The notes under the pieces are model-generated. The model saw only the letters and a program-made list of their open reading frames with translations. It was not told the origin of the DNA and did not search any database. 64,000 bases of DNA from the NCBI RefSeq assembly GCF_003334335.1, contig NZ_QOWQ01000028.1; one strand, 5' to 3'. The translations under genes were made by a program, and so were the position numbers. This document shows positions 1-8,275 of this stretch, piece by piece. The number at the start of each line of letters is the position of its first letter. The stretch's first letter is position 1. This DNA is from Escherichia coli. GTDB lineage: Bacteria > Pseudomonadota > Gammaproteobacteria > Enterobacterales > Enterobacteriaceae.

Positions 1-210
1 CGTACCATTCAGAACTGGCAGGAACAGGGAATGCCCGTTCTGCGAGGCGGTGGCAAGGGTAATGAGGTGCTTTATGATTCTGCCGCCGTCATAAAATGGT
101 ATGCCGAAAGGGATGCTGAAATTGAGAACGAAAAGCTGCGCCGGGAAGTTGAAGAACTGCGGCAGGCCAGCGAGACAGATCTCCAGCCACCCGCGCTACG
201 GCATGGGTAA
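1..210 (+). pseudogene. nohA: Phage terminase small subunit (lambda Nu1-like) 3' fragment, truncated at both ends; stop at 208-210
   Basis: Frame-1 translation from base 1 reads RTIQNWQEQGMPVLRGGGKGNEVLYDSAAVIKWYAERDAEIENEKLRREVEELRQASE, matching lambda Nu1 as recalled, then diverges and stops; 5' end runs off the window. Confidence 0.75.
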
Positions 211-1468
211 ACGTCTTGGTGCGGCAGATGTGGATAAATGGGCGCTGTATGTCATCGGCCAGTGTTGCGACCAGTCGGTGCCGGACGGTTTTGGCGGCAC
301 GGAGCCGCGCATCACCTGTAATGCCTGGCTGACCACACAGCGTAAGGCGTGGGATGTTCTCAGTGATTTCTGCTCGGCGATGCGCTGTATGCCGGTATGG
401 AACGGGCAGACGCTGACGTTCGTGCAGGACCGACCATCAGATAAGGTGTGGACCTATAACCGCAGTAATGTGGTGATGCCGGATGATGGCGCGCCGTTCC
501 GCTACAGCTTCAGCGCCCTGAAGGACCGCCATAATGCCGTTGAGGTGAACTGGATTGACCCGGATAACGGCTGGGAGACGGCGACAGAGCTTGTGGAGGA
601 CACGCAGGCCATTGCCCGTTACGGTCGTAACGTCACGAAGATGGATGCCTTTGGCTGTACCAGGCGGGGGCAGGCGCACCGAGCCGGGCTGTGGCTGATT
701 AAAACGGAACTGCTGGAAACGCAGACCGTGGACTTCAGCGTGGGTGCCGAAGGGCTTCGCCATGTACCAGGTGATGTCATTGAAATCTGTGATGATGACT
801 ATGCGGGGATCAGCATCGGCGGGCGCGTGCTGGCGGTGAACAGCCAGACGCGGACACTGACGCTCGACCGTGAAATCACGCTGCCATCCTCCGGCACCAC
901 GCTGATAAGCCTGGTTGACGGGCAGGGTAATCCGGTGAGCGTGGAGGTCCAGTCCGTCACCGACGGCGTGAAGGTGAAAGTGAGCCGGGTTCCTGACGGC
1001 GTTGCCGAGTACAGCGTGTGGGGGCTGAAGCTGCCGACGCTGCGTCAGCGCCTGTTCCGCTGTGTGAGTATCCGTGAGAACGATGACGGTACGTATGCCA
1101 TCACTGCCGTGCAGCATGTACCGGAGAAAGAAGCCATCGTGGATAACGGGGCGCACTTTGACGGTGACCAGAGCGGCACGGTGAATGGTGTCACGCCGCC
1201 AGCAGTTCAGCACCTGACCGCAGAAGTCACCGCAGACAGCGGGGAATACCAGGTGCTGGCGCGCTGGGACACGCCGAAGGTGGTGAAGGGGGTGAGCTTT
1301 ATGCTTCGCCTGACCGTGGCAGCGGACGACGGCAGTGAGCGGTTGGTCAGCACGGCCCGGACGACGGAAACCACATATCGCTTCACGCAGCTGGCGCTGG
1401 GAAATTACAGGCTGACAGTCCGGGCGGTAAATGCATGGGGACAGCCGGTGCACATACCCATTCGATGA
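203..1468 (+). pseudogene. stfQ: Lambda J-like host-specificity (central tail fibre) protein internal fragment, no native N- or C-terminus
   Basis: ORF 101..1468: from residue ~35 (GKRLGAADVDKWALYVIGQ...) to ...RAVNAWGQ it follows the lambda J central region as recalled; J homology ends near 1444 and a stop follows 8 codons later; different frame from the upstream nohA remnant. Confidence 0.7.
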
Positions 1469-1743
1469 CATTTGTTTCAGGTGGTTCCAGTGGTGCTCCG
1501 GGAAGTGGATCACCTGATTATTCTAAATACAGTGTTAACACTTCTTCTGCAGGCGCTCATACGCACTCTGTATCGGGTACTGCTGCAAGCGCAGGTGCAC
1601 ACGCACATACTGTCGGTATTGGTGCTCATACGCACTCCGTTGCGATTGGTTCACATGGACATACCATCACCGTTAACGCTGCTGGTAACGCGGAAAACAC
1701 CGTCAAAAACATCGCATTTAACTATATTGTGAGGCTTGCATAA
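1435..1743 (+). CDS. Side tail-fibre C-terminal tip segment with repeated GAHTHS (HxH) motifs; out of frame with the upstream J-like fragment
   Basis: ORF 1435..1743 contains four G-A-H-[TA]-H-[ST] repeats typical of phage tail-fibre tips; its stop overlaps the tfaQ start (TAATG). Confidence 0.55.
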
Positions 1744-2318
1744 TGGCATTCAGAATGAGTGAACAACCACGGACCATAAAAATTTATAATCTGCTGGCCG
1801 GAACTAATGAATTTATTGGTGAAGGTGACGCATATATTCCGCCTCATACAGGTCTGCCAGCAAACAGTACCGATATTGCACCGCCAGATATTCCGGCAGG
1901 CTTCGTGGCTGTTTTCAACAGTGATGAGGCATCGTGGCATCTCGTTGAAGATCATCGGGGTAAAACGGTTTATGACGTGGCTTCCGGCGACGCGTTATTT
2001 ATTTCTGAACTCGGTCCGTTACCGGAAAATGTTACCTGGTTATCGCCGGGAGGGGAATATCAGAAGTGGAACGGCACAGCCTGGGTGAAGGATACGGAAG
2101 CAGAAAAACTGTTCCGGATCCGGGAGGCGGAAGAAACAAAAAACAGCCTGATGCAGATAGCCAGTGAGCATATAGCGCCGCTTCAGGATGCTGTGGATCT
2201 GGAGATCGCAACGGAGGAAGAAACCTTGTTGCTGGAAGCCTGGAAAAAGTATCGGGTGTTGCTGAACCGTGTTGATACATCAACTGCACCGGATATTGAA
2301 TGGCCAGCACTGCCGTAG
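1743..2318 (+). CDS. tfaQ: Prophage tail fibre assembly protein (Tfa family)
   Basis: 191 aa ORF recognised as Tfa-family; immediately follows the tail-fibre tip and is adjacent to an invertase. Confidence 0.85.
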
Positions 2319-2415
2319 GGTAAAACATATAAATTCTATAATTAGATGTATCTCTCCATTTACGGCAAGGAAGGGGGCTTGGAAGACGTAAAGCATCTCA
2401 CACCGAGATTATTTT

Positions 2416-3006
2416 TTATATGTCAGGTGTCTGAAGTTTTGCTTTGGCTCTTAAAATGGTTTGCCGCGAGGTTTTGAATTCCCGGGCAATGGCACTTATA
2501 CTTACACCTGACTTAATTCGTTCGAATACCACCTGTTTCTGTTCTTCATTTAACACAGGTGGTCGACCAAAACGTTTCCCTGCGCCGCGGGCTCTTACTA
2601 TCCCGGAATGAGTGCGTTCAAGTAAAAGGTCTCGTTCAAATTCAGCGACTGCTGAAATTACGTGCATCATCATTTTTCCTGTTGGACTGGTCAGGTCAAT
2701 GCCCCGCAATGCTAAGCAATGCACTCTGATACCTGTTTCGGTCAGTTGTTCCACTGTTTTCCTGATATCCATTGCATTACAACCAAGGCGATCCAGTTTT
2801 GTCACAATCAATTGATCACCACATTTCAGGCGAGCAAGCAACCGGTTAAAACCAGGACGCTCACTGGTTGCTGCTGAGCCGCTAATGTGTTCTTCGATTA
2901 TTTGCTGAGGTTTGATTTTAAAACCTGCACTTTCGATTTCCCGGCGTTGATTTTCGGTGGTCTGATCCAGCGTTGATATCCGACAGTAAGCAAAAATTCG
3001 AGACAT
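2416..3006 (-). CDS. pinQ: Serine-recombinase DNA invertase (Pin/Gin/Hin family)
   Basis: 196 aa ORF with N-terminal resolvase catalytic motif (YCRISTLDQ) and C-terminal HTH; recognised as PinQ. Confidence 0.9.
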
Positions 3007-3322
3007 AGTGAGACTCTATACGAAATTGGTGTTCATATCATAATGCATCTCAGAAAATAATTTTGATTATTTTTGTGCATATTTGTATGTACACGTTCGA
3101 AAATAAACGAATGCGTATGCAACCCCGTAACTTTGGTGAGACCCAAAATCGATTTTGTGAAAAATGGCTTTAACTCGGTTTGTTTTTCGAGTTCCGGGCG
3201 GACTCAAGGAAGAAGAATAGTGTTGCGTGTTATTTTAACCAGATTTCAAGTTGTTTGGTCGTGGAAAAGTGGAGCAAAATGTTGTTAAAGTGGAAAAATG
3301 ATAAAAAAGTAAGTTTATTATA

Positions 3323-4341: not shown

Positions 4342-5625
4342 ATGGATTTCCAGTTATATTCGCTCGGCGCAGCGTTAGTGTTTCATGAAATATTTTTTCC
4401 TGAATCATCAACGGCAATGGCGTTAATTCTGGCAATGGGAACCTACGGTGCAGGTTATGTGGCGCGTATTGTCGGAGCATTTATTTTCGGCAAAATGGGC
4501 GACAGAATAGGGCGTAAAAAAGTGCTCTTTATTACCATCACCATGATGGGGATCTGTACCACCTTAATTGGTGTGTTACCGACCTATGCACAGATTGGTG
4601 TTTTTGCACCCATCTTGCTGGTGACGTTGCGTATTATTCAGGGGTTGGGTGCAGGTGCGGAAATTTCCGGTGCCGGTACGATGCTGGCGGAATATGCGCC
4701 AAAAGGTAAGCGCGGAATTATCTCCTCATTTGTGGCTATGGGAACTAACTGCGGAACCTTGAGCGCAACGGCAATCTGGGCCTTTATGTTCTTCATTCTC
4801 AGTAAAGAGGAACTGCTGGCGTGGGGATGGCGTATACCGTTCCTGGCGAGTGTTGTCGTGATGGTCTTTGCTATCTGGTTGCGTATGAATCTGAAAGAAA
4901 GCCCGGTCTTTGAGAAGGTTAACGACAGTAACCAACCGACAGCAAAACCTGCACCTGCTGGTAGCATGTTCCAGAGCAAATCCTTCTGGCTGGCAACAGG
5001 GCTGCGTTTTGGTCAGGCGGGTAACTCCGGGTTAATTCAGACTTTCCTTGCAGGCTATTTAGTGCAGACGTTATTGTTTAACAAAGCAATTCCAACAGAT
5101 GCATTGATGATCAGTTCGATTCTCGGCTTTATGACCATTCCGTTCCTTGGTTGGTTATCCGATAAAATTGGTCGCCGGATCCCGTATATTATTATGAATA
5201 CCTCCGCGATTGTGCTGGCATGGCCAATGCTTTCTATCATTGTAGATAAAAGCTATGCCCCGAGCACCATTATGGTTGCACTGATTGTGATTCATAACTG
5301 TGCGGTGCTGGGATTATTTGCTCTGGAAAACATTACCATGGCAGAAATGTTCGGCTGTAAAAACCGCTTTACCCGGATGGCTATTTCTAAAGAAATTGGT
5401 GGTCTTATCGCTTCCGGTTTTGGTCCTATCCTGGCGGGTATTTTCTGCACCATGACGGAATCCTGGTATCCGATCGCCATTATGATCATGGCATATTCAG
5501 TGATTGGTTTAATCTCTGCGCTGAAAATGCCAGAGGTGAAAGACCGTGATTTAAGTGCGCTGGAAGACGCTGCGGAAGATCAACCGCGTGTTGTAAGAGC
5601 TGCGCAACCTTCCAGAAGTCTGTAA
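4342..5625 (+). CDS. ydfJ: MFS-family transporter, probably 5'-truncated at the prophage boundary
   Basis: 427 aa multi-TM ORF with MFS loop motif GKMGDRIGRKK only ~55 residues from the N-terminus, suggesting a missing first helix; followed by an intrinsic terminator. Confidence 0.8.
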   Translation: MDFQLYSLGAALVFHEIFFPESSTAMALILAMGTYGAGYVARIVGAFIFGKMGDRIGRKKVLFITITMMGICTTLIGVLPTYAQIGVFAPILLVTLRIIQGLGAGAEISGAGTMLAEYAPKGKRGIISSFVAMGTNCGTLSATAIWAFMFFILSKEELLAWGWRIPFLASVVVMVFAIWLRMNLKESPVFEKVNDSNQPTAKPAPAGSMFQSKSFWLATGLRFGQAGNSGLIQTFLAGYLVQTLLFNKAIPTDALMISSILGFMTIPFLGWLSDKIGRRIPYIIMNTSAIVLAWPMLSIIVDKSYAPSTIMVALIVIHNCAVLGLFALENITMAEMFGCKNRFTRMAISKEIGGLIASGFGPILAGIFCTMTESWYPIAIMIMAYSVIGLISALKMPEVKDRDLSALEDAAEDQPRVVRAAQPSRSL

Positions 5626-7588: not shown

Positions 7589-8275
7589 TTACTCTTCGCT
7601 AAACCAGTCGCTGTTTTCCTGGCGGATCTGGCGCACGGATTCGCTGATTTCCTGCAAATGTTGCGTCATTGCACGTTCTACCGCATCGCCATCACGTTTT
7701 TGCAGGGCAGAGAAAATATCAAGATGCTGGCGTAACAGCATTTCTGGTGGAGAAACGTGGTCGAAACTCATATAGCGCACGCGATCAACGGTCGCTTTCA
7801 GGTTCTCAATGGTATCCCACGCCAGTTGACAGTCGGCAATCTGCGTCAGGAGTTGATGGAAGTTGTCATCAAGTTCAAAAAAATCATCCAGTTGCTTGCG
7901 CTCAATGGCAATGCGTTGCTGGTGAAGATTTTGTTCCAGTTGATAGCACTGGCTTTCGGTAATCATGCTCGCCGCCCGACGCGCCACCGCGCACTCAATG
8001 GCCTGACGGATAAAACTGCCGTTGCGCACCTGGGCCATGGAAATTTTGTTGACGTAGCTGCCACGTTGCGGACGAATTTGAATCAGGCCGTTTTCCGCCA
8101 GTTTAATAAAGGCTTCACGAACCGGCTGGCGTGACACATTGAAACGAACAGAAACTTCTTTTTCCGACAACGGTGTGCCTGGAGCAATCAGGCAATGGAC
8201 AATGTCGCGACGAAGAATACGATAAATCTGCTGATTGACAGGCTGTGTGGGATTAAGTTGCGTTTCGACGGTCAT
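7589..8275 (-). CDS. ydfH: GntR/FadR-family transcriptional regulator
   Basis: 228 aa ORF with N-terminal winged HTH and FadR-type C-terminal domain; recognised as YdfH (RspR). Confidence 0.85.

Follow-up and report, generated by a model that had tools for sequence, protein, structure and literature searches.

The needle at the distal end of the coliphage T4 long tail fibre, formed by gp37, is reportedly a six-stranded sheet of descending and ascending strands, in which each iron site is made by one His-x-His (HxH) motif from each of three chains. Within gp37, residues 811-881 and 1010-1026 make up the collar (D10) and residues 882-1009 the needle (D11), along which lie seven iron atoms coordinated by histidines; the iron ligands H929 and H931, together with the tip residues that follow them, are essential to receptor binding (PMC6957217). 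Fibre genes of a related kind are also found in cryptic prophages of Escherichia coli, where the PinQ invertase acts in trans on the P segment of prophage e14 and yields a chimeric protein, StfE2, which has been proposed to block adsorption of phage T2 (PMC12529663, 2025). Here we describe a fibre fragment lying close to pinQ, near the start of a 64,000-nucleotide stretch of E. coli DNA (contig NZ_QOWQ01000028.1; the whole stretch is referred to below as the window). The fragment occupies a 102-residue open reading frame (ORF) on the + strand, with an ATG at 1435 and a TAA stop at 1741-1743, and by sequence its product belongs to the HxH needle-tip family of T4 gp37 and lambda Stf. The ORF is very probably an inert pseudogene relic, born by deletion, that preserves the ~100 final codons of stf, the side-tail-fibre gene of the cryptic prophage Qin.

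The HxH needle tip encoded at the stf locus

Among all PDB chain sequences the sole match to the ORF is 2XGF, which comprises residues 785-1026 of the T4 long-tail-fibre protein gp37. The part of the ORF product that aligns, residues 26-102, corresponds to the end of that chain (E = 4.4e-25), with 52 of 77 positions identical (68%) and 39 of 43 over the last 43. The intact Stf of E. coli Res13-Lact-PEA12-26, a strain that carries a complete copy of this tail module (see below), aligns with 2XGF over its C-terminal 214 residues, across collar, needle and tip (E = 1.5e-89), and all seven of its HxH motifs have counterparts in the T4 structure, three descending (SHTHS, GAHTHS and GAHTHS) and four ascending. 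A PHROG search matches the ORF with the C-terminal ends of several tail-fibre families (1e-40; for example phrog_295, 3e-40), and a chaperone gene of the gp38/Tfa type, tfaQ, lies directly 3' of the remnant with overlapping stop and start codons. All of this bears out the original prediction, which had proposed a needle tip of the gp37/Stf type. Pfam PF03335 (Phage_fiber) gives four matches with independent E values of 0.014 to 1.2, none at or below 0.001, from a profile of only 14 residues; because that profile is so short, the claim of homology is based on 2XGF and the PHROGs. A linker-joined pseudo-trimer of the remnant, modelled as a single chain in AlphaFold2 from three copies with (GGGGS)5 linkers and an 8-sequence alignment, gave a mean predicted local distance difference test (pLDDT) score of 37.9 and a predicted template modelling score of 0.27, and the method is uninformative here since the intact 214-residue positive control came out equally poor (pLDDT 34.6). 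On the likeness of the segment to fibre tips, its sequence identity to the solved structure is the stronger evidence.

The ORF contains five HxH motifs, three GAHTHS, one GAHAHT and one GSHGHT; the motif content and coordinates given for this segment in the original prediction were correct, as judged from the ORF call and a six-frame scan. That scan of the whole 64-kb window found no G[AS]HxH[ST] site other than these five, and in 50 base shuffles of the window the pattern occurred on average 0.14 times and at most once. The direct homology to T4 gp37 likewise excludes a chance origin of the set.

The first GAHTHS (residues 5-10, nucleotides 1447-1464, + strand) is the last HxH of the descending strand and corresponds to T4 gp37 H929/H931, as determined by aligning the intact relative with 2XGF. 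The other four, all on the + strand as well, are ascending: GAHTHS at residues 40-45 (1552-1569), GAHAHT at 54-59 (1594-1611), GAHTHS at 63-68 (1621-1638) and GSHGHT at 72-77 (1648-1665). Their histidine pairs, at positions 42/44, 56/58, 65/67 and 74/76, pair with gp37 H966/968, H980/982, H989/991 and H998/1000 respectively. These four are spaced by 14, 9 and 9 residues, and a 28-residue tip separates them from the first motif. The repeats had been described as four in tandem, and while the motifs themselves are real they do not form a simple tandem array, given that the first belongs to the descending strand and the tip intervenes. The variable tip segment (1465..1548, + strand) sits at the position of the T4 gp37 tip subdomain and would be expected to set receptor contact. 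The end of the C-terminal stretch (1666..1740, + strand) corresponds to the returning collar strand, residues 1010-1026 of D10 in T4.

In an intact fibre this region would form the distal end of a trimeric needle of the T4 gp37 type. Each chain would run down the needle with three HxH motifs, form a short variable tip that contacts the receptor, and return upwards with four, and each triplet of HxH motifs, one from every chain of the three, would bind one iron ion. The remnant starts two residues ahead of the third descending HxH, and it keeps that one motif, the whole 28-residue tip, the four ascending motifs and the final collar strand, so that five of the seven HxH sites remain. It has lost the virion-attachment domain, a shaft of ~800 residues, the collar core (the equivalent of gp37 811-881) and the other two descending HxH motifs. 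For comparison we used seven intact fibres (from lambdoid prophages, phage 2H10, a 106-kb plasmid and three Tevenvirinae) together with StfQ of E. coli K-12, which is N-terminally truncated with its C-terminal domain whole. All eight have three descending and four or five ascending HxH motifs, with a variable segment of 28-50 residues between them. Set against a complete needle, with three descending motifs, at least four ascending motifs and a collar, the remnant falls short in its descending strand and in its collar. No fibre can be built from it because the attachment domain, the shaft, most of the collar and two descending motifs are missing, and its product would probably be unable to rebuild the native needle across most of its length.

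The tip itself varies among related fibres. When K-12 stfQ is aligned with the Res13-Lact-PEA12-26 gene, identity is 94-97% on either side, and ~100 bp of tip cannot be aligned (8014-8110 of the Res13-Lact-PEA12-26 locus stretch). Because the alignment fails only across the tip, the variable receptor-contact segment is sharply bounded by the HxH-coding flanks. The tip allele of the window recurs with 100% DNA identity in a complete tail-fibre gene on the 106-kb E. coli plasmid NZ_CP141793.1, which carries phage tail genes (5001-5302), and a 77% identical tip is present in a gp37-like gene of the lytic T-even phage AV116, a Mosigvirus (stretch 701-1026). Mosaic exchange of fibre tips is well known, and the plasmid and AV116 tips are an example of the exchange of a tip cassette across very different phage types. 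The locus also illustrates that the gp37/Stf tip is a variable cassette between conserved HxH-coding flanks, common to lambdoid prophages, a plasmid and T-even phages.

Deletion junctions and the origin of the open reading frame

The first 3.1 kb of the window match about 40 complete genomes from end to end at 99.9% identity, and for one of these, strain CFS3292, the gene order in RefSeq is nohA', J', stf', tfaQ, pinQ, ydfK, ynfT, ydfJ', ydfI, ydfZ and rspR. To judge from these genes, the window opens with the tail end of Qin, the cryptic prophage known to be inserted in ydfJ. The remnant has in part been catalogued already, as RefSeq lists 1537..1743 of the window as an N-terminally truncated pseudogene belonging to Qin ('tail fiber protein, missing N-terminus').

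An intact tail module occupies the same ydfJ site in E. coli Res13-Lact-PEA12-26 and 0H23, consisting of J (1133 residues), lom, stf (1007 or 1116 residues), tfaQ and pinQ. Relative to Res13-Lact-PEA12-26 the window lacks 4,754 bp, comprising J from codon ~701, lom, and stf through codon ~907. Window positions 187-1445 are 95.4% identical to J of that strain, and positions 1442-3100 are 98.9% identical to its stf end, tfaQ and pinQ. The two alignments meet at a J'::stf' deletion junction (1442..1445, + strand), where CAGC is present in both parents. Downstream of the junction is stf' (1442..1743, + strand), the 3'-terminal ~100 codons of the lambdoid side-tail-fibre gene at the stfQ locus, with 98.9% identity to the 3' end of the intact 1007-codon stf; upstream of the tip, in place of Stf codons 1 to ~907, is internal J sequence in another frame. 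This arrangement is the product of a deletion mediated by CAGC microhomology, which took out 4.75 kb (the 3' portion of J, all of lom, and stf as far as codon ~907) and brought the stf tip up against an internal piece of J that is in another frame. The original prediction placed the tip apart from any intact fibre shaft, and the 4,754-bp deletion, which fuses mid-J to stf codon ~908, agrees with this. To it can be added that the cut falls within the needle itself, at the cost of two of the seven HxH sites and nearly the entire collar.

The frame difference between J' and stf' also accounts for the start of the ORF. Its fortuitous ATG (1435..1437, + strand) appears when the J codons GCA TGG, for the A-W of ...AVNAWGQ, are read in frame +1. 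Because this ATG is out-of-frame J sequence, it was the junction that happened to create the start codon and the two to three residues at the N-terminus. The '102-residue gene' is thus an accident of the junction, and nothing suggests a designed small gene.

A first deletion junction, nohA'::J', lies further upstream (187..189, + strand), at a CCA common to both parents in a three-way alignment of the window, K-12 nohA and J. There nohA, which encodes a terminase small subunit of the Nu1 type, is joined to J at codon ~281, with removal of all the head genes and most of the tail genes. The truncated nohA' (1..210, + strand) begins upstream of the window, is 98.4% identical to K-12 nohA over 1-189, and runs on in frame to a stop at 208-210; RefSeq describes it, to about 204, as 'terminase small subunit, missing C-terminus'. 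The pseudogene J' (185..1445, + strand) is an internal fragment, codons ~281-701, of a lambda-type tail-tip protein J, and matches positions 279-699 of 1163 in the NCBIfam model lambda_TipJ; in RefSeq (185-1444) it is 'host specificity protein J, missing N- and C-terminus'. The Qin deletion of K-12 differs, being a single event that joins nohA directly to a 320-residue StfQ. Because K-12 carries this other nohA::stfQ deletion, decay has been independent between the lineages, and it is still under way at this locus.

Of 5,426 complete E. coli genomes, 91 have the J'::stf' junction, as detected with a 120-bp probe that spans it, and those of them listed are 99.6-99.9% identical over 936 bp without gaps. 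This spread is as expected for a vertically inherited deletion and is consistent with one. Res13-Lact-PEA12-26 is a relative and not the literal ancestor: its J reaches only 95% identity, and a second O157:H16 strain has the deleted form. The two O157:H16 strains are unlike at this locus, with intact J-lom-stf in Res13-Lact-PEA12-26 and the deleted J'::stf' in 98-3133, a contrast which suggests that, within one serotype, the prophage at the ydfJ site has been either replaced or repaired by recombination. As such, the locus offers a clean and fully resolved case of cryptic-prophage decay through two microhomology deletions, independent of that in K-12, although taken alone it is of little importance; the fragment is an ordinary pseudogene remnant that is already known.

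Expression and possible roles of the remnant

No promoter-like site was found on the + strand between 78 and 2474, and hence none in the ~1.3 kb upstream of ATG 1435. The ATG is preceded only by a weak GGCGG, 7 nt upstream, and by no strong Shine-Dalgarno sequence, the native start codon and translation signals of stf are absent from the remnant, and the genes directly upstream are themselves pseudogene fragments. The relic is thus probably neither expressed nor functional. None of stf', TfaQ and PinQ matched a PADLOC defence profile at E values up to 0.01. The ribosome-profiling papers found in a literature search on stfQ/tfaQ expression leave out tfaQ and pinQ, which are multi-mapping duplicates of tfaR and pinR.

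Several considerations weigh on the other side. Translation from ATG 1435, or read-through transcription from upstream Qin genes, could still take place. Not everything nearby has decayed, since tfaQ and pinQ downstream are both intact and are widely conserved. There is also the chimeric tail-fibre remnant StfE2 of e14, which has been credited with blocking receptors against phages (PMC12529663). The ORF is uninterrupted in all of the junction-bearing genomes listed, an observation that at 99.6-99.9% identity carries no weight either way; this is too little divergence over 936 bp for conservation to serve as a test of selection.

Even an inert relic may retain a residual role in cis, as the 3' end of stf' would supply tfaQ with its GAGG ribosome-binding site and TAATG overlap, and it might act passively by offering homology for recombination with incoming phages. 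Three other accounts give the remnant, or its surroundings, a more active part. In the first, the 3' end of stf' persists for the sake of the ribosome-binding site and upstream context of tfaQ, with TfaQ beneficial to the host and the coding of HxH motifs irrelevant. The tfaQ translation-initiation region (1731..1745, + strand) does fall within stf', with GAGG at 1731-1734 and the TAATG overlap at 1741-1745, and tfaQ is intact in this genome, in K-12 and in most E. coli genomes regardless of the state of stf. Some 15 nt (~15, not 300) would nevertheless be enough for such a purpose, the only function shown for TfaQ is fibre assembly, and neutral persistence fits the data equally well; we regard retention in cis as very unlikely to explain the remnant.

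Secondly, the remnant and tfaQ could form a reservoir of host-range cassettes, donating a tip allele to lambdoid and T-even phages by way of the conserved HxH-coding flanks. The flanks are 94-97% identical in DNA to K-12 stfQ around the divergent tip, the cassette is found unchanged on the 106-kb plasmid and in related form in a Mosigvirus, and lambda picks up a marker placed in the stf-tfa region of K-12 Qin at a frequency of ~2e-6 (PMC3945230). Such donation would nonetheless be a consequence for phages and not a selected function of the bacterial locus, and the stf flank upstream of the tip is here only ~20 bp (1442-1464), too short for efficient exchange on that side. As an explanation of the locus it is highly improbable.

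Thirdly, the remnant could have been domesticated, with the 102-residue product, or a 92-residue one initiated at M11, folded by TfaQ into a trimeric metal-binding tip that is used by the host, for example to occupy receptors against phages. An in-frame ATG begins an uninterrupted ORF, and tfaQ behind it is intact and translationally coupled; the complete variable tip is kept along with five of seven HxH sites; the same type of tip is employed by the lytic Mosigvirus AV116; and StfE2 of e14 provides a precedent, the only one for assigning a function to a fibre fossil, as a chimera from a cryptic prophage that blocks T2 adsorption (PMC12529663). The ATG is accidental, however, arising from out-of-frame J and lacking a good Shine-Dalgarno sequence or promoter, and with two of three descending HxH motifs and nearly the whole collar gone only a fraction of the length of a six-stranded needle could form. 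The product has no signal peptide or export route, there is no PADLOC match, and the junction is carried by just 91 of 5,426 genomes, with different remnants in other lineages. Domestication of this kind is extremely improbable. In its most specific form, the accidental ORF would be expressed and make, with TfaQ, a short trimeric iron-binding tip at an outer-membrane receptor, as a deletion-born analogue of StfE2, and to this too we give hardly any credence. Were the remnant expressed and able to block adsorption, it would lend weight to the emerging view that fossil tail fibres can protect the host, and the ~2% of E. coli with the junction would partly exclude phages with the same tip, such as Mosigviruses like AV116 and lambdoid phages with this stf allele. 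The reading that we favour is still that of an inert, deletion-born relic.

An invertible fibre cassette (of the Mu G, P1 C or e14 P type), considered because pinQ is adjacent, was rejected, as there are no crossover sites (Mu gix with up to 3 mismatches and e14 pix with up to 2 are absent from the window and from the intact Res13-Lact-PEA12-26 locus), no inverted repeats bracket stf'-tfaQ in the window or in that intact relative, and only one tfa gene is present.

Neighbouring genes and comparison with known fibres

Directly downstream, tfaQ (1743..2318, + strand) encodes an intact tail-fibre assembly chaperone of 191 residues (phrog_105, 6e-100; tfaQ in RefSeq). A full-length Rfam match to IS009 (RF02111) lies inside the 3' half of tfaQ, at 2086-2284 of the window on the + strand, and scores 221.5 bits against a gathering score of 117; being wholly within the coding sequence, it may mark a real RNA or just conservation of the tfa gene. 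The next gene, pinQ (2416..3006, - strand), encodes an intact serine DNA invertase of the Pin/Gin family with 196 residues (phrog_125, 5e-69; pinQ in RefSeq). Beyond it, ydfJ' (4342-5625, + strand) is the gene in which Qin is inserted, annotated in RefSeq as a major facilitator superfamily transporter with its N-terminus missing, and because the insertion cuts ydfJ the boundary between prophage and chromosome can be placed near 4.3 kb. Two observations were made further along the window. A full-length match to STnc560 (RF01407), a family of Hfq-binding small RNAs, is located at 13679-13892 (+ strand, 281 bits). Two ORFs on the + strand, 38541-42449 (1302 residues) and 42410-43960 (516 residues), match positions 1-1281 and 1291-1806 of an ECSE_1600-family autotransporter profile, as though a single large adhesin gene had been broken by a frameshift near 42410-42449.

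Compared with the T4 gp37 tip (2XGF), the remnant is alike in topology, with a variable tip between descending and ascending strands. It begins at the equivalent of residue ~927 and is without D10 residues 811-881 and the HxH pairs 883/885 and 915/917. The tip sequence of T4 gp37 is unrelated to that of the remnant, whose source is a lambdoid prophage and not a T-even phage. The gp37-like fibre of Mosigvirus AV116 has the same type of tip, and 98% of the remnant aligns with it at 77% DNA identity; it differs in being complete and functional, in belonging to a lytic T-even phage and in having one extra ascending HxH.

Closer relatives are found among the lambdoid fibres. Relative to intact lambda-type Stf-Tfa systems, such as the 1007-residue Stf of Res13-Lact-PEA12-26 and that of phage 2H10, the window keeps only codons ~908-1007 of 1007. 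The same tip allele is present in Res13-Lact-PEA12-26, in 0H23 and on NZ_CP141793.1. StfQ of K-12 (b1547) shares the prophage, the locus and the downstream tfaQ-pinQ, and is identical to the remnant at 65 of the last 68 residues. It differs in its length of 320 residues, in having the whole collar, needle and tip, in its other and longer tip allele, and in that K-12 has no J fragment.

The StfE2 and StfP2 chimeras of e14, generated by PinQ/PinE inversion (PMC12529663), are likewise fibre fragments of a cryptic prophage beside a Pin invertase, and a receptor-blocking defence has been proposed for them. Those chimeras arise by site-specific inversion at pix sites, whereas the remnant described here originated by deletion.

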